Part shown: in pieces, positions 1 through 18,281 of the stretch
How the letters are laid out: each line of letters begins with the position of its first letter
Numbering within the stretch: position 1 is the stretch's first letter
Origin: an uncultured archaeon
Lineage (GTDB): Archaea > Thermoproteota > Nitrososphaeria > Nitrososphaerales > Gagatemarchaeaceae
Assembly (NCBI GenBank): GCA_963817525.1
Contig: CAWFOU010000008.1
Span: 48,669-72,668, forward strand
Reading direction: 5' to 3'
DNA length: 24,000 nucleotides
The notes under the pieces: generated by a model
Told to the model about the DNA's origin: nothing
The model's input: the letters and a program-made list of their open reading frames with translations, nothing else
Databases searched by the model: none
Translations under genes and position numbers: made by a program

Positions 1-391
1 GTATCCCGACCTTGTCCAGCTCGTGGGTGAACTCTATCTCGTCCGACGTGAGGGACTTGGCCTTTACTATCAGCTTCGCGTCGACCCTCTTGGAGAGCTC
101 CTCGACGTAGCGCATAGCGTCGGCACCGGTCTTGGCGAGGAAGACCTGTCCGCCGTTCTTCCGGACGTTCTCGGCGAACTCCTCGACGAGCCGCGGGTTC
201 GCGACCGCTCTAGTCTTCAGGGCCTTGTTCGACTCCTTGATGGCGTGGATGTCGAGCTGCTTCTCCTTGGCGAGGAGGGCCGCCCTGTTTGCCCTGGCCT
301 TTGTCATCGAGTTCCAGAACTTCTCCGAGGACTCCTTGTCGTTGAGCGAGCGCTTGAGCTTGTCAAGCAGCGCCTGCCTGCTGCTGGTCAT
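1..391 (-). CDS. LutB-like LUD-domain protein, N-terminal 130 aa only (continues past window start)
   Basis: Hand translation of the minus strand from ATG 391-389 stays open to position 1: MTSSRQALLDKLKRSLNDKESSEKFWNSMTKARANRAALLAKEKQLDIHAIKESN...NGGQVFLAKTGADAMRYVEELSKRVDAKLIVKAKSLTSDEIEFTHELDKVGI. The GG-V-x-A and K-x-KS-x-[ST]-x-E-I pattern resembles LutB/YkgF N-termini. ATGA start/stop overlap with the upstream LUD gene. Absent from the ORF track because it has no in-window stop. Confidence 0.55.
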   Translation of the reverse strand, partial: MTSSRQALLDKLKRSLNDKESSEKFWNSMTKARANRAALLAKEKQLDIHAIKESNKALKTRAVANPRLVEEFAENVRKNGGQVFLAKTGADAMRYVEELSKRVDAKLIVKAKSLTSDEIEFTHELDKVGI

Positions 392-1029
392 CTCCCCCCT
401 GCCCCCCCTTGCCAGTCGAGGATGATGGCGTGGATCGTGTGAGGCCCGTGCACACCGTAGAGGAGCCTCATCTCGATGTCCCCAGTCTTGCTCGGGCCTG
501 AGATGAAGGAGACGATGGGCTTCCTGGAGCCGGGCGACGCCTTGACCAGCTCCCCGACCATTGGGAGCGCCTCGGCGAGGTCTCGGAGGATGCTGGAGCG
601 CTCCAGCAGCGCGACGTGGATTATCGGGAGCGAGGAGGCGAGCTTTGCCGAGTCATCGTAGACCACCTCGAGCATGGCCCCCTCGAGCGCCACCCCGTTG
701 ACGGCCCACGTCACCCCGGCGTCAGCGGCGGCGAGCACCCCGACCGCCTCGCTGGGCCGCCCGTTCTGGAGGTCTTCGACGTAGTCCGCCTTCAGGCCGG
801 TGAGCGCGGCGCCGACCGCCTCGGCGTATTGGGGTGGCACCCCCGCCACCACGACGGACTTGCAGCCCGCCTTTGACAGGATGGTGCGCAGCGCCTCGGC
901 GGTCTCGGCCTCGTCCTTGGCCATGTGGGGCTCGACGTGAAGGTCCCGCAGAGAGCTAAGAAACTTCTGGACGACCTCGGCCGCGGGTCCGCTCTGCGCC
1001 CCGGTTGGTCTCTCCATTTGTTGGCGCAC
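388..1029 (-). CDS. LUD-domain protein (LutC/YkgG-like)
   Basis: 213-aa ORF with strong GC3 bias. It has the LUD/DUF162-type layout (...AGVTWAVNGVALEGAMLEV...IHVALLERSSILRDL...SFISGPSKTGDIE...GPHTIHAIIL). Translationally coupled to the downstream LutB-like gene. TATA-like TTTAAA (1047-1052) lies just upstream. Confidence 0.65.
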   Translation of the reverse strand: MRQQMERPTGAQSGPAAEVVQKFLSSLRDLHVEPHMAKDEAETAEALRTILSKAGCKSVVVAGVPPQYAEAVGAALTGLKADYVEDLQNGRPSEAVGVLAAADAGVTWAVNGVALEGAMLEVVYDDSAKLASSLPIIHVALLERSSILRDLAEALPMVGELVKASPGSRKPIVSFISGPSKTGDIEMRLLYGVHGPHTIHAIILDWQGGAGGR

Positions 1030-1741: not shown

Positions 1742-2425
1742 TTAGACGGTCAGCGAAGGCTTTTCCTTCTTCGCCTTGTTCCAGTCGTCGAGGAAGCGCT
1801 TGAGGCCGATGTCGGTCAGCGGGTGCAGGAACATCTTCTCCATGACGTCAGCAGGCATCGTGCCGATGTCAGCCCCCAGCTTGGCGGCCTCGAGCACGTG
1901 GATCGGGTGTCTGATGCTGGCCACTAGGATCTCGGTCTTGAACTTGTACGTCGGGCTGTTCTTTATCTCGACGAGGTCACTGATCAAGGCCATACCGTCT
2001 TGGCCGATGTCGTCCAGCCTGCCGATGAACGGGCTGATGTAGGACGCTCCGGCCTTCATGGCGATTAGCCCCTGGACGGCTGAGAAGATCAGCGTCACGT
2101 TGATCGGTATTCCCAGCGAGCTGAGGGTCTTCGTCGCCTTCATCCCCTCGGGGATCATCGGGATCTTTACGACCACGTTCTCCGCCCAGGACTTGTTGCG
2201 CTTGCCCTCCGCCACCATTCCATCGTAGTCGGTGGAGATGACCTCGGCGCTCACCGGGTGGGGGTAGACCTCCTTGGCGATGGCCTTGATGGTCTCCTCG
2301 AAGTCGGCGCCTTCCTTGACGATCAGCGAGGGGTTGGTCGTGATGCCGTCGACGAGGCCCATCGCGTTGTACTTCTTGATCGAAGCAAGGTTCGCAGTGT
2401 CGAGATAGAACTTCAATTCGAGCAC
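1742..2425 (-). CDS. tal: Transaldolase / fructose-6-phosphate aldolase family (short type)
   Basis: Motifs FYLDTANLASIKK, GITTNPSL, VVVKIP (Schiff-base Lys context) and TLIFS. Last gene of the pentose-phosphate operon. The start is GTG 2425; TTG 2416 (giving MKFYLDTAN) is also possible. Confidence 0.9.
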   Translation of the reverse strand: MLELKFYLDTANLASIKKYNAMGLVDGITTNPSLIVKEGADFEETIKAIAKEVYPHPVSAEVISTDYDGMVAEGKRNKSWAENVVVKIPMIPEGMKATKTLSSLGIPINVTLIFSAVQGLIAMKAGASYISPFIGRLDDIGQDGMALISDLVEIKNSPTYKFKTEILVASIRHPIHVLEAAKLGADIGTMPADVMEKMFLHPLTDIGLKRFLDDWNKAKKEKPSLTV

Positions 2426-2463: not shown

Positions 2464-3423
2464 CTACCGCTTCATCGCGATGGCCTGTCGGGCGGCTTCC
2501 TCGATGTGGGCGGCTGTAAGGCCGTACTTGTTGAGGAGCTCCTGGGCCTCGCCGCTCTCGCCGAAGGTGTCGTTGACGCCCACCCTCTTGAGAGGTATCG
2601 GATACTGGTCGGTTAGGACCTCTGCGACAGCGGAGCCCATCCCTCCCATGACGTTGTGCTCCTCCGCGCTGACCGCCGCGCCGCACTTTCTCGCGTATTT
2701 TAGTATCGTCTCTTGGTCGATCGGCTTTACCGTGTGGATGTCGATCACGCTCGCCTGGATGCCCTTGGTCGCCAGCGACTCTGCCGCCCTCACCGCTTCC
2801 GGGAGCATTATGCCGCAGCCGAAGAGCGCGACGTCGCTCCCCTCCCTGACGACGTTGGCCTGGCCTAGCTTGTACTCGAAGCCGCCCTCGTAGACGATGG
2901 GGGTGTTGGAGCCCTTGATCACTCCCCTGGTTATCCTGACGTAGAACGGGCCGGGGATGTCCGCGATGGCCTTGATTATCGCTTTGACCGCGACGGCGTC
3001 CCCAGGGACGACGACGCGCATGTGGGGCACCACCCTCATGAGGGCGATGTCCTCGACCTGCTCGTGCGAGCCTCCGTCAGGCCCGACGGTGATCCCTGCG
3101 TGAGAGCAAACCAGCTTGACGTCGAGGTCGGCATAGCAAAGCATGTTTCGTATCTGGTCGACGCACTTGCCGGGAATGAAGATCGCGTAGGTCCCCGCGA
3201 AGGCGACCTTCCCCCCGAACGCGAGGCCCGCGGCCACACCGACGAGGTTCTGCTCGGCGATCCCGAGGTTGAAGAACCGGTCTGGGTACTTGGCCCCGAA
3301 CATCCCCGACTTCATGGACTCTGTGGTGTCCGCTCCGAGCACGACGATGCGAGGGTTGCTCGCTCCTAGCTCTACCAGCGCTTCGCCGTAGGCGTTGCGC
3401 ATCGCTCCCATCTTCTCTAGCAT
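2464..3423 (-). CDS. Transketolase, C-terminal (pyrimidine-binding) subunit
   Basis: 319 aa with MRNAYGEALVELG, IAEQNLVGVAAGLA and SHAGITVGPDGGSHE motifs of the split transketolase C-terminal half. Confidence 0.9.
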   Translation of the reverse strand: MLEKMGAMRNAYGEALVELGASNPRIVVLGADTTESMKSGMFGAKYPDRFFNLGIAEQNLVGVAAGLAFGGKVAFAGTYAIFIPGKCVDQIRNMLCYADLDVKLVCSHAGITVGPDGGSHEQVEDIALMRVVPHMRVVVPGDAVAVKAIIKAIADIPGPFYVRITRGVIKGSNTPIVYEGGFEYKLGQANVVREGSDVALFGCGIMLPEAVRAAESLATKGIQASVIDIHTVKPIDQETILKYARKCGAAVSAEEHNVMGGMGSAVAEVLTDQYPIPLKRVGVNDTFGESGEAQELLNKYGLTAAHIEEAARQAIAMKR

Positions 3424-3424
3424 C

Positions 3425-4147
3425 TTAAATCGCCCTCCCTCCGGCTTCCTGTCTGGCCTTTTCCCTGAGTAACCCGACCGCCTTTATCGGGTCGGGCTTG
3501 TAGTAGACTCCTGCTCCCGCGACCAGCACGTTACCGCCGCGCTTCACCACGTGCCCCAGGGTCTCCAGCTCGACCCCGCCGTCTATCTCGATGTCGATGG
3601 GGAGGCCCTTGTCGTTGAGCATCTGGGTTATCTTCTCGAGCTTGGGCAGGACCTCCATTATCATGGTCTGCCCGCTGAAGCCCGGGTTGACGGTCATCAC
3701 GCACAGCGTGTCGAGCTTGTCCAGCCTCTGCTCGACCCAAGCTGGCATGTCGGTGGCGGGTTTGAGGGCGAGCCCCATCACCTTGCCCTTCGCGTGGACC
3801 TTGGAGTAGATCGCGTCGAAGCGCTCGCCCGTGAGCGCCTCCGCGTGGAAGCAGAAAAGGTCCGAGCCGGCGTCCAGGAACTTGTCGACGAACTTCTCCG
3901 GCTCGTCGATCATCAGGTGGGTGTCGAACTTCATGTCGGTCTTCTTCCTCAGGGCCTTTACCGTGCCAGGCCCGAAGGTGATGTTGGGCGCGAAGTGGCC
4001 GTCAATCACGTCGAGGTGCACCTGGTCAGCCCCGCCCTTGACCGCGACCTCGAGCGCGGCAGCGAAGTTGGACTGGTCCCCGCCCAGGATGGAGGGGGCA
4101 ATCTTGATCTTCCGCTTTATCGTCTCGAGTGGCATCGTCTTTTCCAC
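3425..4147 (-). CDS. rpe: Ribulose-phosphate 3-epimerase
   Basis: Motifs IAPSILGGD, HLDVIDGHFAPN, THLM, MTVNPGFSGQ and IEIDGG. A 1-nt gap separates it from the downstream gene, and it abuts the upstream stop. Confidence 0.9.
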   Translation of the reverse strand: MEKTMPLETIKRKIKIAPSILGGDQSNFAAALEVAVKGGADQVHLDVIDGHFAPNITFGPGTVKALRKKTDMKFDTHLMIDEPEKFVDKFLDAGSDLFCFHAEALTGERFDAIYSKVHAKGKVMGLALKPATDMPAWVEQRLDKLDTLCVMTVNPGFSGQTMIMEVLPKLEKITQMLNDKGLPIDIEIDGGVELETLGHVVKRGGNVLVAGAGVYYKPDPIKAVGLLREKARQEAGGRAI

Positions 4148-4972
4148 CTACTTCAGCTCCTTGTAGATGTCTTCCATCTTTTCCTTGGTGGGCGCCGTGC
4201 CGTGGTAGGTGGGCGACCACTCCATGAAAGAGATGCCCTTGCCCTTTACGGTGTGGGCGATGATCATCGTGGGCCTGTTCTTCACCATCTCCGCCGTGTC
4301 GAAGGCCTCTATCAGCTGCAGATAGTCGTAGCCGTCGACCTCTATGACGTTCCAGTTGAAGGCGCGCCACTTGGCCGCAAGCGGCTCGAGAGGCATGATC
4401 TGCTCGGTGAGGCCGTCCTGCTGGATGCCGTTCCTGTCGATCATGCCCACGAGGTTGTCGAGCTTGAACTTCGAGGCCGACATCGCAGCCTCCCAGACCT
4501 CGCCCTCGCCCTGCTCCCCGTCTCCCATCAGGACGTAGGTCCTGGTGGGCCTCCCGTCGAGCCTCGCCGCGAGGGACTGTCCCACTCCCACGGAGAGCCC
4601 GATCCCCTCGGAGCCCGCGGGCATCTCAACCCCGGGGATGTCCATGTCTGGGTGCCCTTGGAGGAGCGCCCCGAGCTTCCTCAGGGACTTTAGTTCGGAC
4701 ATGGGGAAGTATCCGGCCTGCCCGAGGATAGAGTAGAGCAGCGGGGCCCCGTGTCCCTTGCTGAGGATGAACCTGTCCCTGTCAGGCCACTTTGGGTTCT
4801 TGGGGTCGTGCCTGAGCTTGTAGAAGTACAGGGTGACCAGAAGCTCCACCGCGGAGAGGGAGCCTCCCGGGTGCCCTGATCCTGCCTCCGCGAGGGTCTC
4901 CAATATCACCTTGCGGGTGTTGCGCGAGATGTCCTGAAGCCTAGTGATTTCCTGCGAAGTAGCCATTCCCAT
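4148..4972 (-). CDS. Transketolase, N-terminal (TPP-binding) subunit
   Basis: 274 aa with SGHPGGSLS, ILSKGHGAP and GDGEQGEGEVWEA (GDG..EG TPP/metal motif). Matches the split transketolase N-terminal half. Confidence 0.9.
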   Translation of the reverse strand: MGMATSQEITRLQDISRNTRKVILETLAEAGSGHPGGSLSAVELLVTLYFYKLRHDPKNPKWPDRDRFILSKGHGAPLLYSILGQAGYFPMSELKSLRKLGALLQGHPDMDIPGVEMPAGSEGIGLSVGVGQSLAARLDGRPTRTYVLMGDGEQGEGEVWEAAMSASKFKLDNLVGMIDRNGIQQDGLTEQIMPLEPLAAKWRAFNWNVIEVDGYDYLQLIEAFDTAEMVKNRPTMIIAHTVKGKGISFMEWSPTYHGTAPTKEKMEDIYKELK

Positions 4973-4974
4973 CT

Positions 4975-6021
4975 CTATCGCCTCACCGGCATCTGGGAGA
5001 CGCGGCTGAGGAAGTCACCCATCGACTCTAGCCGTTTTTCCAAGTCCTCTATCGTCAGCGTCGACGTCCTGGGCTTCTCGCTCCGGACCGTCCCCGCGAT
5101 GTTGCTGAGGCAGGCGGCCTCCGTCGCCGTGCCCCCTGCGGCCACCGCGAGGGAGAAGACCCCGGTCATAACGTCCCTCACGCCGACCTTGTTGAAGAAG
5201 CTCTTCCTGCCGAATGGGAGCGGAAGCGTGGTTATCTGGTCGCGGTCGAAGACGGTCATCCCCTCCTCTCCGCGCGTGATCACGATCCCCTTGCAATCGA
5301 GCCTCCCCAAGAGGTTCACGCCCATGTTCCTGAGGCTGGTCTCGTTCACCATCGCCATCTGGGTGGCGTGGGTGGCCTCGCTGAGGTTCGACTTTAGGTA
5401 AGTCACGCCGCTGTAGTCCATGTAGTGCCTGTCCTTCGGCTGGGCGACCACGATCTTGCCCGCCTTCCTGGCGGCCGCGACCACGGAGCTGATTAGCGAG
5501 GAGGTGACGACTCCCCTGTCGTAGTCCGAAAAGACCACCGTGTCCACGTTGGGGATCTTTCCCTCGGCCGCCGTGGCCAGGGACTTCGTTATCGGGAGCG
5601 CGACCTCCTTCCTGACCTCCTGGTCGATGCGCAGATAGTGCAGCCTGTTGACCATGATCCACGTACGGAGAGAGCTGGGCCTGGTCTTGTCGACCACGAT
5701 CCCCTCCACGCTGACCCCGTTCCTTGCGAGGTCATCCTTCAGCCAGACGCCATAGTTGTCGTCGCCGACCATCCCTATGACGGAGACCTGCCCGCCGAGC
5801 GACGCGACCTCGTTGGCCAGGTTGGCAGCCCCGCCGGGGAGAAGCGTCTCGCCGACATAGTCTGCCGCAGGCACAGGGGCTTCTCGCGCGAGCTTCCTCG
5901 CCGAGACCTCCACGAACCTGCTCACGAGGAAGTCGCCGAGGACTAGCATGCGGCTGCCTTGGAATTTCTTGAGGAGTCCGTTCAATCCTTCATAGGAAAG
6001 ACCCGGCAAGTCCTGAACCAC
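4975..6021 (-). CDS. PfkB/ribokinase-superfamily sugar-phosphate kinase, RfaE/HldE domain-I-like
   Basis: Collinear with the heptose-7-P kinase domain as I recall it. Shared segments are MLVLGDFLVSRF..REAPVP..LPGGAANLANEVASLGGQVSVIGMVGDD, VVFSDYDRG, NLSEA and ITRGEEGM. The signature DxTGAGD reads NKVGVRD. GTG start at 6021. First gene of the PPP operon. Confidence 0.8.
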   Translation of the reverse strand: MVQDLPGLSYEGLNGLLKKFQGSRMLVLGDFLVSRFVEVSARKLAREAPVPAADYVGETLLPGGAANLANEVASLGGQVSVIGMVGDDNYGVWLKDDLARNGVSVEGIVVDKTRPSSLRTWIMVNRLHYLRIDQEVRKEVALPITKSLATAAEGKIPNVDTVVFSDYDRGVVTSSLISSVVAAARKAGKIVVAQPKDRHYMDYSGVTYLKSNLSEATHATQMAMVNETSLRNMGVNLLGRLDCKGIVITRGEEGMTVFDRDQITTLPLPFGRKSFFNKVGVRDVMTGVFSLAVAAGGTATEAACLSNIAGTVRSEKPRTSTLTIEDLEKRLESMGDFLSRVSQMPVRR

Positions 6022-6173
6022 GGGGCGCCAAATTGCAGGCCTGTTTTAAGCTTAACGAAGCGGAGCCCTGCCAGCCGCGTCCCTCCGCGGGACTCTGTCT
6101 TTTTTTGGCCCGCTGAATTGGTTCGACTGCTGTCGTTTGTCGGACGTTTCAAATCGCTTCACGACGATGAAAA

Positions 6174-6182
6174 CATAAATAA
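6174..6182 (+). promoter_or_regulatory. TATA-box-like element upstream of rbcL
   Basis: CATAAATAA is centred about 33 nt upstream of ATG 6211, in the AT-rich divergent intergenic region. The spacing fits a short-leader or leaderless archaeal transcript. Confidence 0.4.
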
Positions 6183-6210
6183 CCTATGACGCGACGAAAA
6201 AAGGGTTTAC

Positions 6211-7638
6211 ATGACAACAGAAGCCATGGTTGAAAGGAGATGGAGCGCCCCGAGCGTAGAGCACGACAGAGGGGACATATTCTCCACCACTCCCGACAAG
6301 GTAGACGTCGACAAGAACGTTCTGGCGACATTTTTCATCACGTGCGACCCTAGGGTCACCATCGACCAGGCCGGAGTCATCATCGCGGCGGAGCAGTCCG
6401 TAGGCACGTTCACGGACGTCTCTACGGCGACGGACCTCTCCACGAAGACAGCGGCCAAGATGTACTCTTACAAGTACGAAGACCCGTCAGGCGCGATGAA
6501 GCACTCGGGCTGGGTCAAGGTCGCGTTCCCGACCTTCCTCCTCGACCTGGACAACAGGGGGATCCCCGACCTGTTCACCTTCGTGACAGGAAACTGGATG
6601 GGTTTCACCCCGATTCCAAACTGCAAGTGGATAGATTTCACCCTCCCCAAGGACGTCTTGAAGCTCTTCAAAGGGCCAAAGTTTGGCGTCGAGGGCCTGA
6701 GGGAGATCGTCGGCACAACGAAGAGCCGGCGCCCCCACGTGGGGATCACAATCAAGCCCAAGATGGGCGTGACCGACCAGGGAGCAGCCCAGCAGTTCTA
6801 CGACGCAGCGATGGGCGGCGTCGACACCTTCAAGGACGATGAGACCTACTTCAACCAATGGTGCTCGCCGCTCCTCGACAGGGTCGCCAAGGTCTACGAG
6901 GCGCTCGACAAAGCCAAGTCGGAGGGCGCCCACCCAGGGGGCGAGTACATGTACGCGCCTCAGGTCACGGTGGACTCTGAAAAGTCGCTCGAGGTCGCGG
7001 ACAAGATGATCGCGCACGGTGCCAGGGGCCTGATGCTCAACATCATGGCGGCCTGGTACCCCGCGCTAAGGGCCCTCGCGGAGGACCCGAGCATCAACGT
7101 CCCGATCCACCTCCACAGGGCGTCGCACGCCTCCCTCACCCGCCACCCGAGGCATGGGATCAGCTTCAAGGTCATCGCCGGGCTGGGCAGGGTCGCTGGC
7201 GGGGACATGATCCACGTAGGGACCGCCAGAGGCAAGCTGGGAGACGCGATAAAGTTCGTCGAGATCCCCGAGATCATGGACGAGATGCAGCGCCCGAACG
7301 GGCACCTAAAGCCCATGATGGGCGTCGCCTCGGGAGGGCTCACGCCGAACAACTACCATTACTCCATAGACTTGATGGGCTTGGACATCCAGCTCCAGAA
7401 CGGGGGCGCGGTCCACGGGCACCCGTGGGGCACCAAGGCGGGCGCTACCGCTGCTAGGCAGGCAGTCGATGCGTACATGAAGAAGATCCCCCTTGAGGAG
7501 TACGCCAAGACCCACGCAGAGCTAGAGGCCTCTCTCCAGTTCTTCGGGCAAAAGTACGCCGTCGCGTCCGCGATGACCGTCGTACCAGAGCTCGGCAAGA
7601 AGGAGAGCGACTATAAGCACATGTTCCGCTCGGAGTAG
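6211..7638 (+). CDS. rbcL: RuBisCO large subunit, form III-like (bona fide carboxylase residues present)
   Basis: Motifs read directly: AAEQSVGTF (E60/T65), GNWMGF (N123), ITIKPKMG (T173/K175/K177), GGVDTFKDDE (K201/D203/E204), IHLHRASH (H294/R295/H298), MIHVGTARGKL (H327/K334), VASGG (S379-G381) and NGGAVHGHPWG. No small-subunit gene is nearby. Confidence 0.9.
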   Translation: MTTEAMVERRWSAPSVEHDRGDIFSTTPDKVDVDKNVLATFFITCDPRVTIDQAGVIIAAEQSVGTFTDVSTATDLSTKTAAKMYSYKYEDPSGAMKHSGWVKVAFPTFLLDLDNRGIPDLFTFVTGNWMGFTPIPNCKWIDFTLPKDVLKLFKGPKFGVEGLREIVGTTKSRRPHVGITIKPKMGVTDQGAAQQFYDAAMGGVDTFKDDETYFNQWCSPLLDRVAKVYEALDKAKSEGAHPGGEYMYAPQVTVDSEKSLEVADKMIAHGARGLMLNIMAAWYPALRALAEDPSINVPIHLHRASHASLTRHPRHGISFKVIAGLGRVAGGDMIHVGTARGKLGDAIKFVEIPEIMDEMQRPNGHLKPMMGVASGGLTPNNYHYSIDLMGLDIQLQNGGAVHGHPWGTKAGATAARQAVDAYMKKIPLEEYAKTHAELEASLQFFGQKYAVASAMTVVPELGKKESDYKHMFRSE

Positions 7639-8011: not shown

Positions 8012-8905
8012 CTACTTCTTCTTGATCGCTTCCGCGATGACCGGCGCCACGCTCACGAAGCTTATCGGCCCCGCGAAGGTGTCGGTCCCTACCACGCCCT
8101 CTATGTTGTTGCTGTACATCAGTGGGAGGGCGTTGAGGCTGAGCACTGGGTGGGTGCACCCCACGTAGATCTTGCGAGCCCCCGCCTTCTTGACGAGGTT
8201 CGCTGCCTCCACGATGGTGTTGCCCGTGCTGATGATGTCGTCGATGATTATGGCGTCCCTGCCCTTGACGTTGACGCCTTCGCCGCCCCTGACCTTGACT
8301 TTGACCTCGGTCGAGGAGAACCTCGTCTTCTGGAGGATCGCGTAGTCGGTCTTAATCTTCGCGGCGGCCACCTTCGCCCACTGCTCGGACTCGTCGTCGG
8401 GGCCGATGATTATCGCGTTCTTCGGCGTGAATATCCTGTTGATGTATTCGGCGATGTATGGGACCGCGGTGAGGTTGGTCGCGGGGATCTTGAACACTTC
8501 CTTGAGGGACGGGACCCTCTGGAGGTGGACGTCGATTGTGAATATCCTGCTAGGGCCTGCCTGCTCGAGGAGCTTGGCCACGAGGTGGAAGCTCAGCGGC
8601 TCTCCTGGGTGGAACCTGGCGTCTTGCCTTGCGTAGGCAAAGTACGGGATGACGACGCTTATCGACTTGGGGCTCGCGCTCTTGAACGCGTCCATGGTGA
8701 GCAGGTACTCCATGATGAGCTCGTCCGGCCTACCCCCTAGCGGGTGGATGTAGACGATGTCCTGACCCTTTATGTCTTCTTCGATCTTGAGGTACTGCTC
8801 GCCGTCCGGGAACCTTTGTCTCTTGACCTTGCCAAGCTTCGCTCCGGTTAGGAGCGACGTCCTGACTGCTAGGGTCTCGCCTGCCGAACCTCCAAAGATT
8901 ATCAT
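8012..8905 (-). CDS. prs: Ribose-phosphate pyrophosphokinase (PRPP synthetase)
   Basis: Motifs FPDGE, YFAYARQDARF and the PRPP-binding loop DAIIIDDIISTGNT. Lies 16 nt downstream of the R15P isomerase gene. Confidence 0.9.
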   Translation of the reverse strand: MIIFGGSAGETLAVRTSLLTGAKLGKVKRQRFPDGEQYLKIEEDIKGQDIVYIHPLGGRPDELIMEYLLTMDAFKSASPKSISVVIPYFAYARQDARFHPGEPLSFHLVAKLLEQAGPSRIFTIDVHLQRVPSLKEVFKIPATNLTAVPYIAEYINRIFTPKNAIIIGPDDESEQWAKVAAAKIKTDYAILQKTRFSSTEVKVKVRGGEGVNVKGRDAIIIDDIISTGNTIVEAANLVKKAGARKIYVGCTHPVLSLNALPLMYSNNIEGVVGTDTFAGPISFVSVAPVIAEAIKKK

Positions 8906-8921: not shown

Positions 8922-9971
8922 TTAACGGGCGCCGGATTTCGCCTGGGCGCCTTCGGTGTACTGGTAGAGCTCCTTCATCAGCGAGAAGACCGCTCCGGGC
9001 GGCACGATGCCCTTCTCGGTGACGTAGAAGTCGATGTATTCCGGTGGGGTGACGTCGAAGACAGGGTTGCTGAACTTCACCTTGGGGTTGTTCGCGCTCC
9101 ATTCCTTCGAGGCGATCTCCGTGTAATCCCTCTCCTCGATGTCTACCAATTCGCCGTTCAAGGTCTTGAAATCGAGCTTATAAGTTTCAGCGGCCACGAT
9201 GAAGTTTACCCGCGCCTCGTGTGCCATCGTCGCGACCTGCGAGGTCCCGATCTTGTTCACCAAGGCCCCGTTCACCGCTATCGCGTCGCAGCCTACCACG
9301 GCCTTGTCGGCGTGTGCCATGTTCACCCTGCAGGCAGAGTCGCAGATGAGGGTGGTGTCGATCCCATAGGCCGCGAGGGCCGCCGCGGTCTTGTGGCCCT
9401 GGAACTTGGGCCTCGTCTCGTCGCAGAACACCTTGATGCCCTTGCCCATGTCGTAGGCCTTCTTCAGGATGCTCATGGCGGCTTCGCTGTTGCAGTGGGT
9501 GATGATGATGTCGCCGTTCTTGACCCGCCTTGCTCCTATCTCTCCGATGAGCTTTACGGCCTCCACGCTGGAGATGAGGAAGTCGTTCGCGGTGTTCACG
9601 GTCGCGTTCCTGATCTCCTCGACCGTGGCTCCCGACTCGAAGGAGGTCCTGCCTCCATAGAGCACGTAGTTCACGCCGTTGGGGAGGGAGACGGCGGTGG
9701 GCCTAGCAGACCTGAGCTTCTCACCGGCCTTTAGGACGAGGGCCCAGTATTCCCTGGAGTTCTTGGCCTTGGCCTCCTTCGCGTAGTCCCTGAGTGCCTG
9801 TGCGGCGTACCTCGCGATGCGGCCCGCACCGTGGACTCGCATGGACTTTAGGTTGTCATAGGCTTCGTCTACGGTGACTTTCTGGAATTCTTCCTTGCCT
9901 TCCTTTAGTGTCTCCACGTGAACCGTTTCGCCTTCATGGGAGCTTATATATGTATTACCCGCGAAATTCAT
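8922..9971 (-). CDS. eIF-2B alpha/beta/delta-family protein, ribose-1,5-bisphosphate isomerase-like
   Basis: Motifs MRVHGAGRIAR, ARPTAVSL, IITHCNS (Cys), VVGCDAIAVNGALVNKIGT (Asp) and FIVAAETYK. The RuBisCO context supports R15P isomerase rather than a translation factor. The N-terminus is about 30 aa longer than I expect, so the true start may be internal. Confidence 0.8.
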   Translation of the reverse strand: MNFAGNTYISSHEGETVHVETLKEGKEEFQKVTVDEAYDNLKSMRVHGAGRIARYAAQALRDYAKEAKAKNSREYWALVLKAGEKLRSARPTAVSLPNGVNYVLYGGRTSFESGATVEEIRNATVNTANDFLISSVEAVKLIGEIGARRVKNGDIIITHCNSEAAMSILKKAYDMGKGIKVFCDETRPKFQGHKTAAALAAYGIDTTLICDSACRVNMAHADKAVVGCDAIAVNGALVNKIGTSQVATMAHEARVNFIVAAETYKLDFKTLNGELVDIEERDYTEIASKEWSANNPKVKFSNPVFDVTPPEYIDFYVTEKGIVPPGAVFSLMKELYQYTEGAQAKSGAR

Positions 9972-11550: not shown

Positions 11551-12735
11551 ATGGCCGAAGATAAAGGCGGCGCGGACTCGGTAAGGCTCACCTGGCCTCC
11601 GCTGGAAGAAGACCTGAGGAGGCTCTACGTTGTGGAGAAACTTTCCGCTTCGAAGATCGCAAAGGCGTATGGACTTCAGTATGCTAGCGAAAAGACCGCG
11701 GAGTCGACGATCCTCCACCATCTCAAGAAAAACGGGATAGCCAGACGAGACGCGGCAGCGCACATCAGGAAGGTTACCCAGAAGATGGCGGACGAGTGGG
11801 TCGTCAGGTATCAGAAGGGCGAGTCGCTGAAACAGATTGCGGGGGATGCGGTCGACGCGGTCACGGTCTTCAACCATCTCCACAAGCGGGGCCTAAGCCT
11901 CAGGGACAAGGTCGAGGCGCAGATCAAGGCCGTAACGATTCACGACAAGAAGCCGTTCCAAGGGAGTCCGGCGGATCGGGCGTATCTCGCAGGAATCACG
12001 AGGGGAGATTTCTGGGCGGGACGACACGGACGTGCAGTTCGAGTTAGGCTAGGCACAACTCATCCGGACATGGCCGCCCTGTTTCGTCTGCTATTTGGGT
12101 GGCACGGTCCGATTTACGAATATCCAAAGCCCGCCGCGCTAACGGAATACGAATGGATACTAGATTGCGATCTTGACTCAAGTTTTGAGTTTCTGATACA
12201 ATCCAAGGCTGACGTATCCGAGATCATTCGCAGTTCTGACCTATTCATGAGCTTCCTCGCGGGCTTCTTCGACGCCGAGGGCACGGTCTACTTCCACAAG
12301 AAACGTAGCGGCGGTGCGTTTGAACTGGCCATGGCAAATACGGACGAAGGACTCCTCCGCGACATTAGAGACGAACTGGCGCGACGTGGATTCGCGGTCA
12401 AGCTCGAGCGAACTAAACAATATCGAGCCGAAGCCGTCAGGCGCGGAATAAAGAACCCCGGCGAGTTCATTTGGCGGATATTAGTTTGGCGATTTGAGGA
12501 CGTTCGCAGGTTGATGACGGCGATGCCAATTAGACACGCGGAGAGGACGGCCAAGTTTGCGATTGCGCTCAAGCTCGGCTACAGACCAAGGCACGAGGAT
12601 CGTGAGAGAGTATTGATTGAATGGAGGTCCCTAAGGACCTCGATTAGAACTAGCCGCGACGCCTACGTCGCCCAAGCGAAGGCAATTTGCAGCTCCAAAG
12701 AACGAAGTAAGTTTAAAACATACTCAGTTCAGTAA
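11551..12735 (+). mobile_element. Free-standing LAGLIDADG homing-endonuclease-family gene with N-terminal HTH repeats
   Basis: 394 aa with two LAGLIDADG motifs (YLAGITRGDF and FLAGFFDAEGTV). Two HTH-like units precede them (LSASKIAKAYGL...LKKNGI and ESLKQIAGDAV...LHKRGL). Visibly more AT-rich than its neighbours (26/60 G+C in 12181-12240 against 39/60 in 12841-12900 of nuoD). Confidence 0.8.
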
Positions 12736-12754: not shown

Positions 12755-13876
12755 CTAATGGTCTGCCTCGACCGGCCAATAATTCAATCCCCAGTACACT
12801 GGTGGGATGTCTGCGACGTGTATCCCCCTGAGCAGGTGGGGCATCACCCGCATGTTTTTGAAGCTCGGGACGCCGAGCTTGAGCCTGTAGGGCCGGGGGC
12901 TCCCATCGCTGACGATGAAGTAGCTCATCTCGCCGTGCGCGGCCTCCGTCCTCGCGTAGACCTCGCCTGGGGGGACGCGCGGCGCGGGGCCGAGCTTGAG
13001 CCTGACAGGGCCCGGCGGGATGTTCTTGAAGGCCTGCCTGAGGATCTTGACCGATTCCCTCATCTCGTGGAGGGCGACGTAGGCCCTCGCCCAGCAGTCG
13101 CCCTCGTTCTGCGAGGCGACCGAGAAGTCGAACTCGGGGTAGGCGCCGTAGGGCTCGGCCCTCCTGATGTCGTGCGCCACCCCTGACGCCCTCAGGACGG
13201 TGCCCGTCGCGCCAAGCCTGATGGCGTCCTCCTTGGTCAGCACGCCGACGCCCTTCGACCTCTCCTCCCAGAGGGGGTTCTTGAAGAATATCTTCTCGTA
13301 CTCGTCCATCCTCTTCTCGAACCAGTCGAGCGTCTCGAATGCCTGGGTCGTGAGGCCCTCGGGCATGTCGTTCCTCACCCCCCCGGGTATGATGTACGCG
13401 AAGGTGACCCGGGCGCCCCCGATCCTGGCTGCGATGTCGATGAAGAGGTCCCTGTCTCCCATGCACCATGTGATCATGGTGGTCTGCCCCACGAAGAGGC
13501 CGAGGATGCCCAGGTAGTACTCGTGGGAGATTATCCTGTTGAGCTCCGCCATTATGACCCGGAGGTACTCGGCCCTGGGCGGGATCTTGTTGTTCATGAG
13601 CTGGTCGACCGCGAGGGAGTAGGCGAAGAGTATCCCGGAGCTGTCGAGGATGACTGGCCTCTCGAGGTGGGGGACGTTCTGGATGTAGTTCCTGTACTCG
13701 CACATCTTCTCCTCGCCCCTGTGCACGTAGCCGGGGTCGGGGTCCGCCCTGACCACATAGTCCCCGTCGAGCCAAAGGCGGATGCGAAAGTGGCCGGCCC
13801 CCGGGTGCTGTGGCCCGAGCGAGACGGCCATGATCTTGTCCGAGTCCGGCGAGTACTCGAAGGCTGCGGATGCCAT
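12755..13876 (-). CDS. nuoD: NADH:quinone oxidoreductase subunit D (49-kDa/Nqo4 family)
   Basis: Motifs LGPQHPGAGHFR and GYVHRGEEK, with the C-terminal ...PPVYWGLNYWPVEADH. 373 aa. Starts 3 nt after the nuoC stop. Confidence 0.92.
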   Translation of the reverse strand: MASAAFEYSPDSDKIMAVSLGPQHPGAGHFRIRLWLDGDYVVRADPDPGYVHRGEEKMCEYRNYIQNVPHLERPVILDSSGILFAYSLAVDQLMNNKIPPRAEYLRVIMAELNRIISHEYYLGILGLFVGQTTMITWCMGDRDLFIDIAARIGGARVTFAYIIPGGVRNDMPEGLTTQAFETLDWFEKRMDEYEKIFFKNPLWEERSKGVGVLTKEDAIRLGATGTVLRASGVAHDIRRAEPYGAYPEFDFSVASQNEGDCWARAYVALHEMRESVKILRQAFKNIPPGPVRLKLGPAPRVPPGEVYARTEAAHGEMSYFIVSDGSPRPYRLKLGVPSFKNMRVMPHLLRGIHVADIPPVYWGLNYWPVEADH

Positions 13877-14506: not shown

Positions 14507-17395
14507 CTACGTCCCGCGCAGGCTGTTCGAGTGCCTGATCTTCTCTTGGAGGAGGCCGACGCCCTGCATGAGCGCCTCTGCGCGCGGCGGGCACCCGGGC
14601 ACGTAGACGTCCACTGGGATGATGTCGTCGATCCCCCTGAGGACGTTGTATGAATCGAAATACAGGCCGCCGGTGATGGAGCAGTTGTGGACGAGCTGCC
14701 CGTTTGCGAAGAAGTTGTGGTACCCCGCGACCTCGATGTCGTAGACGGCATCGCTCCCTCTCGGAATGACAGAGGTGACGCGCTGCAGGCTGATTCCCGC
14801 ATGGTTTGTCCTGAGCATTCCTTTGCCTTCGAATGATCGCGAACCCGTTTTTACCCTGGTTCGATAGTCGGACCGGTATAGAGGCAATTTAGCAATCACC
14901 GACATGGGGAAACTTATGATGTATTCAGTGGTCTTCAATTGTCTTCCCTCGAGGCAATTCTCCTTTTCCTTCACGAAGACTCCCCCGACATGTATACCTC
15001 GATAGTGACATAGCTGGACGACATCCATCATCAAGTCCTTGTTCGCCGAGGAGAGTTGCCCGAAACCCTCCTTCTGTACGTAGCCATCCGACTCAATCAA
15101 TCCAGCCAAGAAACTGAGAACGGAAGATATGGGCAACGTGTAGACCCAGGATGGGATTCTCTTGGTGTGGACGTCTCCCACGAGTCCGAGCGATTCGAAC
15201 ATCCCTGCGACGGTGCTTGACCAAATCATTACCTGCCTGCCCTCGTGAGGTTTGAATCCGAAGAGTTCAGTGACGAGCCTCACCAGCTTGTCCCTGGAGA
15301 GGTCTCCTTTCATCAAGGAGAATCCTACGCAGTACTTGTTCTTCCAGCCGTCGCCAAGATAGAGCCCTGCCAACCACGCAAGGCCGTCATCGACGGTCTC
15401 AGGAATTCTGGCTTGCTTTCGAACTGCTCCTCGGTGCTGATAGTTGATTCTAGCTGGCGCCCCTCCGGGAAATTCCGAATAGGTGACCAGTAAGTCTTCT
15501 TCGCAAAGTTCCAGAGCGTTTTTCCAGACCAAATCGAGTCCGTACTTCGATGGCGGATGGCTCCTCCAATATGACAGAGTTTTGCTGCCGACACCTAGTA
15601 GATCCGAGACGTCGTTGAGGGGGAACCCCTCGTCTATCATGGCCAGGAGGGACTTGTACGCGACCCATTTTCTTGACAACGTCCGCTCGTAGACCGCAAA
15701 TGGATGGTCCTCGGTTGCCACGGATTCGTAGGAGCCGGCACGCACGCGGAAGACTGGTCTGACTCCTTGATCCTTTCTCGCAATTACGGGAGCCTCAACC
15801 ACTCGCTTTTGCTCCTCATCGTACGAGTAGACTGTTTCGCCTGGCCCGACTTCGTCCATGCGTCGCAGGCCACCGGGCGTGTAGACCATGGAATCACCCC
15901 GTTCGCACGCACCCATAGCGATCACCCACTTCGGTTCGGGCATCTGGTCGTAGATCAGCTTGAGCCTAGGGGCGAGCTTGCGCGTCACGGTGCCCATCAC
16001 TATGATGAGGTCGCACTGCCTGAGGGAGCCGAAGGCCTCCAGGATCCCGAAGCGCTCGGCGTCGAACCTTGAGCCGGCGACGGCCCCGACCTCGACAGAG
16101 CAGTTGTGGACTACGGCGTTCGAGACGAGGTAGGTGTTGTCTCCGGTTTCCAGATTGTGGACGGGGCCAGAGTAGTCCACCCGTTCCACCTTTCTGATCG
16201 GGACTACGATAAACTCGGGAGTCATCCGGAAATCCGAAACCTTCCTCTCGGAGGTCAGGGTCGAAATGGTGTAGGAATCATGCGTCATCACATCTCGGCC
16301 TAGAATCTTGGAAGCGCCTCCGTTTGCCTTTCTGTTTATCCTGGCGAAAGTACCGAACCTCGCATAAGCAAGCTGGAGTTGGAGAGCCAGCGTCTTCGAT
16401 GTGGTATCAGCTTTGGCGAACTCAGGGCCTCTCTTGTCGGTGATCTCGGCTCCGTCGCCCTGGAGGTAGCCCTGAAGGAATGACCTGAGCAGATCGAGGT
16501 CCTTGTGGTACAGGATAAAGTCGGGAATCTTCTTGTTCTCGGCGAGGTGTCCGCACCATTCATGGAACGCGCGGGCCAGGATGGCCGAGGAGAATCTCAC
16601 CACGGTTGCCGTGTCCCGTCTCTTCACTTGAGGGGAATATCCCAATGACTTTGCGATCTCGAAAATCCGGGATCTCAGGTTCACTTCGTCGTGGCTCAGA
16701 GAGAAGGAGATGTCGTGCCCTACCGTGTCCCATCCTTCGGCGACGAAGATTCCTAAGAGCCAAGCGGTGTCCGTATTGAGGGGGAACTCCAGAGGAGGTT
16801 TTTCTCCTCGCCCACGGACTATATTCAGTCCTCGGCTTGTGGCATAGGACGCTAGTGGGATGGATCGGGAATCGACGAACCCCTTGGGCCGGGGAATCAG
16901 CAGGCAGTCGTGAGAGCCCTTTGGGTAGAGGAACTTGCCATTCTTCTTCATTGGCTGGGAAGCCACGAGGTCTCCGGCCTTCTTCCATACCTTCTCCGAG
17001 AGATAGGCGCCCTTCCCGTAGGAGAGCTGCCTGCCTACCGTGAGGACGGGATGCTCTGGAGTCGCGAGTATCGGGAGCATCCCGCGGCCCGAAATTTTGA
17101 CTAGTTCCCCCCGATACTGCCTAGAGAACGTATCGACTACGTCCACGAGCCCTGTCATGCCCGTGACCTTGTCTTTGACTGCGTACTGCGAGATCGGCTT
17201 GTTGTCTCCCAGGACTATGGTGTCTGGTGGGACGCAACACGCCGTCTCCAGGTGGACGGGCCAGAGGCTGTAGAGCCTCCCCCAGTTGGCCATGTAGCGG
17301 AGGGGGGCCCCGATGGTGTCTTGGAGGAAGTCGTTGACCCTTCCCACGAGGACGTTGACCTCCCCGGTCTTCGGGACCTGCGCGGACTCTACCAT
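14507..17395 (-). CDS. nuoB: NADH:quinone oxidoreductase subunit B (PSST/Nqo6) precursor, 962 aa, carrying two inteins; predicted mature extein 176 aa
   Basis: ATG 17395 overlaps the nuoA stop by 7 nt. Exteins: MVESAQ...[10 protein letters not shown] | [65 protein letters not shown] | [36 protein letters not shown]... Joining them restores the CCxxE, GxCxxxGG and CPP motifs of NuoB. Confidence 0.9.
14684..15907 (-). mobile_element. Intein 2 of NuoB (408 aa, HTH-like insert plus LAGLIDADG domain)
   Basis: Begins [10 protein letters not shown]. Has TxxH in [14 protein letters not shown]-like [29 protein letters not shown] motifs [11 protein letters not shown] and [12 protein letters not shown]. 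Ends [21 protein letters not shown], followed by +1 Cys (TGC 14683-14681). AT-rich (24/60 G+C in 14881-14940). Confidence 0.85.
16103..17236 (-). mobile_element. Intein 1 of NuoB (378 aa, LAGLIDADG homing-endonuclease domain)
   Basis: Begins [10 protein letters not shown] (block A). Has TxxH in [11 protein letters not shown] (block B). LAGLIDADG motifs [11 protein letters not shown] and [11 protein letters not shown]. Ends [22 protein letters not shown], followed by +1 Cys (TGC 16102-16100). Coordinates were verified codon by codon. Confidence 0.85.
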
Positions 17396-17760
17396 ATCTC
17401 TCGCTTCCCCGCCAGGTGCACGGTGAGGCCCATGGGTATCAGGAGGGCGCCGACGAACACGAGCATCATCCAGCTTGAGAGCTGCCCCAGGGCGAGCGGC
17501 TGGTAGGCCACCGCCCAGGCGAAGAGGAACATCGCCATGACGTCGAAGACGACGAACAGCAGGAGATAGGCGTAGTACTGCATCATGAAGTGCATCTTCC
17601 CCCGTCCTCGGGGGACTTGGCCGGCCTCGAAGGTCTCGTTCTTTATCGGGTTGGGGCTCTTGGGGGCGAGGATCCTCGGGACGATGAGCATTATGCCGGT
17701 GAAGAGGATGCCCACGCCGCCCATAACGAAGACGGCCGCAACGTTCCCAAAGATCGCCAA
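17389..17760 (-). CDS. nuoA: NADH:quinone oxidoreductase subunit A
   Basis: 123 aa with three hydrophobic helices and a conserved-type loop, [11 protein letters not shown] start at 17760 (in-frame stop 4 codons upstream). First gene of nuoABCD. Confidence 0.85.
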
Positions 17761-17798
17761 CCTTGGAACTCTCTAGAAGATTTGGAAAGCCGTCGAGC

Positions 17799-17806
17799 AT
17801 ATTTAA
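17799..17806 (-). promoter_or_regulatory. TATA-box-like element for the nuo operon
   Basis: The minus strand reads CCTTAAATATG. TTAAATAT is centred about 43 nt upstream of the nuoA start. Confidence 0.4.
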
Positions 17807-18281
17807 GGCTTGGCGGGCTTGGCTCTGGTAACTCTTCGGCGCATGGGCGATTCTATACCTCTCCAAGATATTTGGGATGTGTCAAGTTGCTCTGCGCGCG
17901 GGGAGAAGCTCCGCACACCCGAAAGGGGGATGCCGAGCACAGGACTTACGGTCGGATGGAGAGGGACGTGAATTCACCCCCTCGGACTATCCAGGCGGGG
18001 GCGGTCAAGGTTCGACCGTTCCCGTCCCTTGTCGTAGGACGCTACCGTTTCTACACTGGGGAAGAAGGGCTGGCAGGTGAGGCAATGAAGGGGAACGGGA
18101 CGACTACCCTAACCCTTCGAGTCGACGCCAGCAAGGCGACTAGTCGGCATGAGCCGAGGAGTTGCCAGAACCTCGGGGTCGACGGCAGGTCGCGGAGCCC
18201 TCGCTCGTCGCTCTTGCCTTTAACCCCGAAACGCGGCGAAGCGAAACACATTTAGTGACGGTCCGCTCGGCTTGAAGGAGC

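Follow-up and report, generated by a model that had tools for sequence, protein, structure and literature searches.

A gene for a sugar-kinase-like protein of the PfkB family, found in the genome of an uncultured archaeon of the Gagatemarchaeaceae, is the subject of this work. It lies in a stretch of 24,000 nucleotides (GenBank assembly GCA_963817525.1, contig CAWFOU010000008.1, forward-strand positions 48,669 to 72,668), which we call the window and in whose own numbering positions are given. The gene is the first of a tight operon that continues with the N-terminal subunit of a split transketolase (TktN), ribulose-phosphate 3-epimerase (Rpe), the C-terminal transketolase subunit (TktC) and a short transaldolase (Tal); the gaps ahead of Rpe, TktC and Tal are 0, 1 and 38 nt (table 1). 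It is transcribed divergently from rbcL, the gene for a RuBisCO large-subunit homologue that scores under the NCBIfam form III cutoff (284.6 vs 497). The spacer between the two genes holds a TATA-like element, ttaagcttaaaa, at 6044-6055 on the minus strand, about 28 nt upstream of the kinase GTG, and an A/T-rich box some 30 nt ahead of the ATG of rbcL; we infer that both are putative promoters. An alternative TTG start at 6009 would give the 344-aa form that is found in many database copies of the kinase. The role of this protein is probably tied to the transketolase, epimerase and transaldolase encoded beside it rather than to RuBisCO, and its active site combines a retained catalytic aspartate with a rebuilt anion hole.

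Table 1. Positions of the kinase gene, its diagnostic motifs and the neighbouring genes in the window.
Feature	Position	Strand	Remarks
HldA-like PfkB protein with deviant motif	4975..6021	-	348 aa; GTG at 6021; stop TAG 4975-4977
NKVGVRD, residues 277-283	5173..5193	-	GxGD anion-hole/catalytic-Asp motif, second Gly = Arg282
K210-S211-N212-L-S-E215	5377..5394	-	NxxE Mg/phosphate motif; clade-specific Lys-Ser vs canonical Thr-Pro
PGGAAN, residues 62-67	5821..5838	-	di-glycine sugar-binding motif, kept
C-terminal tail ...VSQMPVRR	4978..5001	-	Q343, P345, R347, R348 conserved; absent from canonical HldA/HldE
Transketolase N-terminal subunit (TktN)	4148..4972	-	ATG at 4972, 2 nt past kinase stop
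Ribulose-phosphate 3-epimerase (Rpe)	3425..4147	-	Pfam/NCBIfam
Transketolase C-terminal subunit (TktC)	2464..3423	-	Pfam/NCBIfam
Short transaldolase / FSA-family protein (Tal)	1742..2425	-	final gene of conserved unit
Divergent spacer kinase/rbcL	6022..6210	.	189 bp
RuBisCO large-subunit homologue (rbcL), form III-like	6211..7638	+	neighbour, outside conserved unit
Prs	8012..8905	-	Pfam/NCBIfam; subclade-restricted module
Ribose-1,5-bisphosphate isomerase (R15Pi)	8922..9971	-	Pfam/NCBIfam; subclade-restricted module

The kinase is a single domain with no fusion to an adenylyltransferase. PfkB (PF00294) is its sole Pfam match (E=2.3e-21, 76.9 bits vs a gathering cutoff of 25.8), and the same scan gives no assignment to the P-loop phosphoribulokinase (PRK)/uridine kinases. 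Two of the three PfkB motifs are present together with the fold, namely the di-glycine G63-G64 and the invariant N212..E215; the third, GxGD, is altered. The top NCBIfam model is TIGR02198 (rfaE_dom_I; E=7.7e-67), with 225.6 bits, below its equivalog cutoff of 345; the HldE model NF008454 gives 174 bits with a cutoff of 521, and the models for ribokinase, 1-phosphofructokinase and halophile ribose-1-phosphate (R1P) kinase score at background level. The nearest solved relative is HldA of B. cenocepacia (4e84, E=1e-29), whose DVSGAGD aligns without gaps over NKVGVRD. An AlphaFold model (pLDDT 87, pTM 0.89) has HldA chains as its top Foldseek matches, with TM-scores of 0.75-0.89; ribokinases and Pfk-2 are also matched, FLN1 and FLN2 are among the weak matches in the Protein Data Bank, and a helix is predicted to begin at residue 281, the position expected for the anion hole. 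The collinearity with the HldE/RfaE kinase domain described in a first-pass annotation, made from the sequence alone, is thus borne out by the best family and structure matches, and all of the motifs that it quoted are in the translation; it was also right that the gene leads the transketolase operon and diverges from rbcL, and that heptose genes are missing nearby, since GmhA, GmhB and HldC were not found among the main window open reading frames (ORFs) scanned. Public annotations name the family heptose-7-phosphate kinase or bifunctional ADP-heptose synthase, a label that is likely to be wrong for the thaumarchaeal clade. Literature searches on heptose and PfkB, transketolase and the pentose phosphate pathway in archaea and ammonia-oxidizing archaea returned no description of this protein.

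The active site was compared across 118 Gagatemarchaeaceae sequences, 37 sequences of a Nitrosomirales-type clade and 171 canonical sequences. Much of it is the same in each of the three groups: G29/D30, the lid E47-A-P-x-P51, G63/G64/N67, R114, T120, R131/D133/E135, D166/Y167/G170, P195/K196, N212/E215, T249/G251/G254, G280, D283 and N307, with N212, E215, K196, T249/G251/G254 and N307 conserved at 95-100% in the thaumarchaeal clade. Against this background, GAGD is found in 100% of the canonical sequences, while G280, R282 and D283 are found in 100% of the thaumarchaeal ones; an alignment of 16 sequences, the most divergent of them at 59% identity, shows no variation at G280, V281, R282, D283 or in the Q.PVRR of the C terminus. 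Both thaumarchaeal clades carry the fixed switches P46R, D194Q, T210K, P211S, A281V/I, G282R, T284A and V285M, together with a 17-residue C-terminal extension in which the model places a beta-strand at residues 342-345. Lys210 is universal in both clades (canonical sequences have T in 64% and K in 20%). K278, two residues ahead of G280, is replaced by Ala in the Nitrosomirales-type clade. If D139 of the enzyme TM0415 (PMC5931981) is a guide, the canonical D194 of the DPK motif would be a carboxylate arranged around Mg-bound waters. The ratio of non-synonymous to synonymous substitution (dN/dS) against close orthologues is 0.06-0.12 and, because this low value is accompanied by an invariant motif and tail, the gene is functional and not decaying. 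The first-pass annotation had seen that NKVGVRD departs from the family signature with its Asp retained, and had taken the departure as a hint of changed specificity; its fixation, the purifying selection on the gene and the accompanying donor-site switches all speak for altered function.

Positions 215 and 282 vary together. Among 366 aligned sequences, the charged pairs are E/R (160), K/E (14), D/R (3), K/D (1) and E/K (1), and like-charge pairs do not occur at all. In canonical ribokinase-family enzymes, Mg2+ and the transferred phosphate sit in this region (restated in PMC5931981), and the pattern of the alignment indicates a probable direct electrostatic coupling at that site. A second layer of change is confined to the Gagatemarchaeaceae, in which the canonical positions D34S, G39V, R43K, K119R, R121W, K169R and G318R, otherwise 98-100% conserved, have been replaced, as has V313R. 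Because residues so strongly conserved in canonical enzymes are affected, the acceptor pocket of this family has moved too. These changes are common to members with and without RuBisCO; the Nitrosomirales-type clade keeps most of the canonical acceptor residues (D34, K119, R121 and K169).

Gene order shows which neighbours accompany the kinase. Among its best 120 database relatives, identity is never below 59%, and all of them come from metagenome-assembled genomes (MAGs) of Nitrososphaerota/Thaumarchaeota. Window proteins were searched by tblastn against 19 loci (L001-L019) from MAGs of Gagatemarchaeaceae type from soil and peat, among them Ca. Gagatemarchaeum stordalenia. The order kinase-TktN-Rpe-TktC is present in 19/19 within the available flank, and Tal is usually next. 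As neighbours of the kinase, R15Pi, Prs and RbcL are confined to a subclade of 85-90% identity, all three of them being present in L001-L004 and L007; L016, from the same subclade, shows RbcL only, and its available upstream flank stops just beyond rbcL. In eight loci of a 65-69% clade, tblastn found none of the three in the 6-10 kb upstream of the kinase, and the RuBisCO side is replaced by GuaA, an adenosine-deaminase-family gene and a helix-turn-helix (HTH) gene on the kinase strand. Because the kinase-TktN-Rpe-TktC unit is universal and the genes on the RuBisCO side are limited to a subclade, the kinase belongs to the pentose phosphate operon. R15Pi-Prs-RbcL is a separate, subclade-restricted module or insertion, self-contained and mobile, as judged from the inverted orientation of rbcL in L001 and the rarity of the window-type Prs, whose next relatives among the matches listed are 71-74% and 51-57% identical and come from other Thaumarchaeota, including Tara marine sequences. 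According to Sheridan et al. 2023 (PMC10640624), just three of the family's genomes have a type III rbcL, R15P isomerase and an adjacent Prs, and the family is without phosphofructokinase; no KEGG orthology entries for heptose genes or transketolase occur in the supplementary text searched.

Several smaller observations were made at the same loci. The block of GMP synthase, adenosine-deaminase-family gene and small HTH protein stands directly upstream of the kinase in L008, L010-L015, L017 and L019, for example at 6888-9898 in L013; the small HTH protein may act as a regulator of the kinase operon in RuBisCO-less Gagatemarchaeum-type genomes. A gene for a LUD-domain protein (388-1029, minus strand) lies downstream of Tal, and its relative position is kept in L002-L005, L007 and L016. 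Some genes appear as two adjacent tblastn segments, in part frame-shifted (L003 11050-11876; L007 10001-11045 and 7002-7893; L019 10001-11024), and TktC of L010 and L017 is split in the same way; in these contigs of the MFD-series MAGs, the splits are most likely assembly indels and not true pseudogenes.

To sample the wider family, 1.84 billion cluster representatives were scanned exhaustively with HMMER; identity falls steeply beyond the kinase family, from 60% to 41%, 38% and then about 35%. GAGD is found in 132 of the 150 representatives listed. A subset carries a second signature, [IVL]N[EDQ][TS]S[LI]xN (MVNETSLRN at residues 224-232 of the window protein), and most members of this NETSxRN subset have a non-canonical anion hole: G[VIL]RD, GVSD, GVVD, GEGD, GVGD, GVAD or GEID. 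The catalytic Asp283 is constant throughout the deviant subfamily, with one sequence excepted. Profile searches resolve a large clade of proteins of about 343 aa that combine RAIGIRD and KSN..E with QVPLHR at the C terminus; a lineage of 319-aa proteins that have GVED or GVDD and in which NxxE is lost; and canonical GAGD members that have the NETSIRN signature. In a rough neighbour-joining tree, one G[VIL]RD clade unites the Gagatemarchaeaceae, the Nitrosomirales-type sequences and the lineages P0360/P0373, P0123, P0125/P0271 and P0127, and separate origins of GVRD are indicated for P0274-6, which sits amid GAGD sequences, and for P0130. The anion-hole substitution thus appears, on this rough tree, to have been acquired more than once.

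The transketolase operon extends beyond the family in which we found it. The GIRD clade (L034, L035 and L044) has the same kinase-TktN-Rpe-TktC...Tal operon, with kinase and TktN overlapping by 4 nt in L034, and no heptose genes lie within 8-10 kb of its kinase. L034 is labelled Ca. Nitrosomirales, an order of ammonia-oxidizing archaea that use the 3-hydroxypropionate/4-hydroxybutyrate (HP/HB) cycle for carbon fixation (PMC10811736). A sister lineage (P0373, L043) has the same kinase-transketolase operon. Immediate adjacency of kinase and TktN, with 2-nt gaps or 4-nt overlaps, is seen also in L034-L039, L043 and L044 and is kept down to 38% identity. Across all of the thaumarchaeal loci (L001-L019, L034, L043 and L044) and the window, GmhA, GmhB, HldC and HddA are not found within 8-10 kb.

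More distant members are placed differently. Two of the NETSxRN superclade with canonical GAGD stand in complete ADP-heptose clusters, in which the heptose genes are GmhA, GmhB, HldC and GT9: L041 reads SIS-HAD-unknown-HldA-HldC-TktN-TktC-Tal, and L045 combines TktN, TktC and Tal with a GT9 heptosyltransferase. Deviant paralogues (GxRD, GVED) upstream of TktN co-occur with a second, intact heptose kinase. In L038 and L040 this second kinase is HldE, a bifunctional enzyme, and in L036 it is a GHMP kinase of the HddA type, accompanied by genes for NTP-transferase, SIS and HAD proteins. The deviant paralogue of L040 is separated from TktN by a PDDEXK gene. From these contexts of GAGD and deviant members, the ancestral setting is taken to be a heptose-nucleotide cluster with its own transketolase and transaldolase, which it appears to have carried for the synthesis of sedoheptulose-7-phosphate (S7P). 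An ORF of about 317-319 aa recurs in archaeal ADP-heptose/transketolase/transaldolase clusters (L041 1381-2340, L045 2356-3309 and L038 11923-12882), adjoining the HldA-like gene or GmhB, with no Pfam match or a weak one to ArgZ-like_C_2nd; it may be an unrecognized component of the ADP-heptose pathway.

The reading that we tentatively prefer is that the protein is a neofunctionalized but still catalytic sugar-phosphate phosphotransferase, linked to the pentose phosphate pathway and altered in its use of donor or metal. The thaumarchaeal kinase would descend from an archaeal HldA and would have remained with transketolase and transaldolase once the heptose genes left the neighbourhood, to become fixed as the first gene of the split-transketolase/Rpe/transaldolase operon in the Nitrososphaerota (Gagatemarchaeaceae, Ca. 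Nitrosomirales and their allies). The sugar-phosphate pocket, the lid and the catalytic Asp have been kept, the Mg-nucleotide side has been rebuilt, and a C-terminal strand ending in two basic residues has been added. The predicted reaction is the transfer of phosphate to a hydroxyl of a sugar phosphate from the non-oxidative pentose phosphate pathway, for which a heptose- or sedoheptulose-type phosphate or a pentose phosphate is a candidate acceptor. Cationic side chains would substitute for the glycine anion hole and for one carboxylate of the metal site, giving an altered usage of donor or metal whose logic would resemble that of the pyrophosphate (PPi)-dependent ribokinase-family kinases. 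Phosphotransfer to a sugar phosphate is favoured because the catalytic base, the sugar-phosphate pocket, NxxE and TRGxxG are kept and GVRD is convergent; Mg-ATP would be handled non-canonically, because K210 and R282 add two positive charges and D194Q removes a carboxylate. A sharper version of this proposal, that of a Nitrososphaerota-wide enzyme coupled to transketolase, which uses a non-ATP donor such as PPi or dispenses with metal and phosphorylates a pathway intermediate (of the heptose-7-phosphate/S7P type, or ribose-5-phosphate (R5P)) at C1, is unlikely as it stands.

Several points count against catalysis of this kind. The Arg occupies the third position of GxGD, and not the second as in the RXGRGD signature of PPi-dependent enzymes, and the Ala at position 278 removes another basic residue from the Nitrosomirales-type clade. 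The loss of NxxE in some members of the wider subfamily is equally consistent with lost catalysis, and a possible salt bridge between R282 and E215 could merely block the metal site. The acceptor of the Gagatemarchaeaceae enzyme is uncertain because of D34S, R121W, K119R and K169R. Finally, to our knowledge, the non-oxidative pentose phosphate pathway requires no kinase.

The main rival is a pseudokinase. In this view, the protein would bind a sugar phosphate without transferring phosphate, and the split transketolase or other operon enzymes would have it as a partner, in a regulatory or a structural role. FLN1 and FLN2, PfkB pseudokinases that are subunits of the plastid RNA polymerase, provide a precedent. 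An anion-hole glycine without exception among the canonical sequences has been replaced, the metal-site Asp194 has become Gln, and the covariation of positions 215 and 282 is compatible with a salt bridge that occupies the Mg/gamma-phosphate site; related deviant lineages that lack NxxE adjoin an intact HldE, and the persistence of TktN as neighbour at 38% identity suits a partner protein. Set against this are the near-invariance of Asp283 in the deviant subfamily, the conservation of the remaining catalytic and sugar-phosphate residues in the thaumarchaeal clade and the convergent appearance of GVRD, which suggests selected chemistry over decay; nor was evidence obtained for a fusion to, or an interaction with, transketolase. 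We regard a pseudokinase as fairly unlikely, and rank it below the modified phosphotransferase.

An ordinary heptose-7-phosphate kinase, making heptose for the S-layer or glycans with the remainder of its pathway encoded elsewhere and the motif change merely tolerated, is improbable. It has in its favour that HldA and HldE are the top family and structure matches, that canonical relatives in the superclade reside in ADP-heptose clusters with transketolase and transaldolase, and that the Nitrosomirales-type clade retains most canonical acceptor residues. The TIGR02198 score, however, falls well short of the equivalog cutoff, the pathway partners are missing within 8-10 kb in every thaumarchaeal locus, deviant paralogues that do lie near heptose genes come with a separate bona fide kinase, and the Gagatemarchaeaceae have additionally acquired D34S and R121W.

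The first-pass annotation had proposed the protein as a candidate R5P 1-kinase, whose product ribose-1,5-bisphosphate (R15P) would be the substrate of the R15P isomerase encoded nearby, or as a PRK substitute. In the wider form considered here, R15P would be formed from R5P or R1P, or ribulose-1,5-bisphosphate from ribulose-5-phosphate, for R15P isomerase and RuBisCO. The idea has obvious attractions: the gene adjoins R15Pi-Prs-RbcL in the window and in five of the loci, and RbcL in a sixth; the window ORFs scanned include neither an AMP phosphorylase nor a PRK of the P-loop type; the chemistry would be analogous to that of HldA; the acceptor-site changes are specific to the Gagatemarchaeaceae; and purine-metabolism genes are its neighbours in RuBisCO-less relatives. 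It founders on distribution, because the same operon is conserved in loci without nearby RuBisCO genes and all of the active-site features recur in orthologues that have neither RuBisCO nor R15Pi nearby, including that of an ammonia oxidizer with the HP/HB cycle. Moreover, the product of HldA is a beta-anomer and the substrate of R15P isomerase is probably an alpha-anomer. The restriction of rbcL, R15Pi and Prs to three genomes of the family, the self-contained and mobile character of their module and a score far below the cutoff of the R1P kinase model (given below) add to the case, and we consider the proposal very improbable. In broader terms, the function of the kinase is very probably not RuBisCO-specific, and any activity on R5P or R1P, if present, would not be a RuBisCO-specific adaptation; dephosphorylation of phosphoribosyl pyrophosphate is one possible source of R15P for the module. 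The first-pass annotation had also called for a phylogeny and neighbourhood analysis of the NKVGVRD-type subclade, naming linkage of orthologues to glycan-biosynthesis genes as contrary evidence. The thaumarchaeal orthologues travel with the transketolase operon; more distant relatives lie inside heptose-glycan clusters, which touches the point that it named. A nucleoside-kinase or ribokinase reading, suggested by the GuaA and adenosine-deaminase neighbours, ranks low, as the set of sugar-phosphate-binding Arg and Lys residues shared with HldA is kept.

These results remove, as unsupported, a tempting answer to the question of how RuBisCO is supplied with substrate in these soil archaea. They leave a strongly conserved, uncharacterized family at the head of the only pentose phosphate operon seen in these loci, from abundant soil Thaumarchaeota and an order of ammonia oxidizers. 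A catalytic protein would widen the range of donors and metals known for the ribokinase family; a non-catalytic one would be a PfkB pseudoenzyme of prokaryotes that is tied to transketolase. A phosphotransferase that is independent of ATP or of metal would constitute an unrecognized energy-linked step or control point in archaeal pentose phosphate metabolism, ammonia oxidizers included.

Elsewhere in the window, the gene for NuoB of complex I (14507-17866, minus strand) is split by two inteins with LAGLIDADG/Hom_end domains, intein 1 at 16103-17236 (378 aa) and intein 2 at 14684-15907 (408 aa). Each is inserted directly ahead of a Cys, in the conserved motifs ..ACC.. and ..GAC.., with the junctions ETAC|C...VVHN|CSVE and AMGA|C...LVHN|CSITGG; we take the cysteines of these motifs to be ligands of an Fe-S cluster. 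Without both inteins, NuoB is a normal 176-aa protein from M158 (17395). Free-standing LAGLIDADG_3 ORFs of about 373-394 aa are found at 11551-12735 (plus strand) in the window, adjoining NuoD (12755-13876), and at 18254-19375 (minus strand) in L013; they may encode homing endonucleases akin to the NuoB inteins.

Among known systems, the closest is HldA or the kinase domain of HldE (RfaE domain I), the D-glycero-beta-D-manno-heptose-7-phosphate 1-kinase (4E84). The two share the PfkB fold and are collinear over about 310 residues, with the lid EAPVP, GGAAN, RPT..., R.D.E, SDY.[KR]G, PK, NxxE, TRGxxG and the catalytic Asp in common. They differ in that GAGD has become GVRD, DPK has become QPK, TPN..E has become KSN..E, GAGDTV has become GVRDxM and SPEAPVP has become [AS]REAPVP; in addition, the window protein has a C-terminal extension ending in PVRR and a score below the equivalog cutoff, and its gene is fixed at the head of a Tkt-Rpe-Tkt-Tal operon with no heptose-pathway genes nearby.

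The closest mechanistic precedent, the PPi-dependent TM0415 (Nagata et al. 2018, PMC5931981), owes its specificity to a Lys that precedes NxxE by two residues, an Arg that precedes GxGD by the same distance and a further Arg within GxGD itself. The window protein resembles it in motif-relative positions, K210 corresponding to K171 and K278 to R229, and in the presence of Arg within GxGD. It differs in having GVRD (Arg at position 3) vs GRGD (position 2), and K278 is not kept in the Nitrosomirales-type clade. For this reason, membership of the PPi-kinase signature is rejected and the likeness is kept as a mechanistic analogy only. The acceptor of TM0415 is myo-inositol, and the two proteins have no detectable sequence relation beyond the family level. 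In TM0415 the adenosine pocket is filled by two bulky hydrophobic residues, F221 and M266; the kinase carries the switches V285M and V322L.

Archaeal R1P kinases of the pentose bisphosphate pathway (NF053626) give a background match only, of 32.8 bits vs 330, over residues 63-117, and the occurrence of the window family does not track that of R15P isomerase. Enzymes of the ribokinase superfamily that supply R15P isomerase with R15P were reportedly described by Aono et al. 2015 and Sato et al. 2022. FLN1 and FLN2 resemble the window protein in their PfkB fold, in a degenerate catalytic signature and in being partners of another enzyme; they belong to an unrelated lineage and context, and the window protein differs from them in keeping both the catalytic Asp and NxxE.

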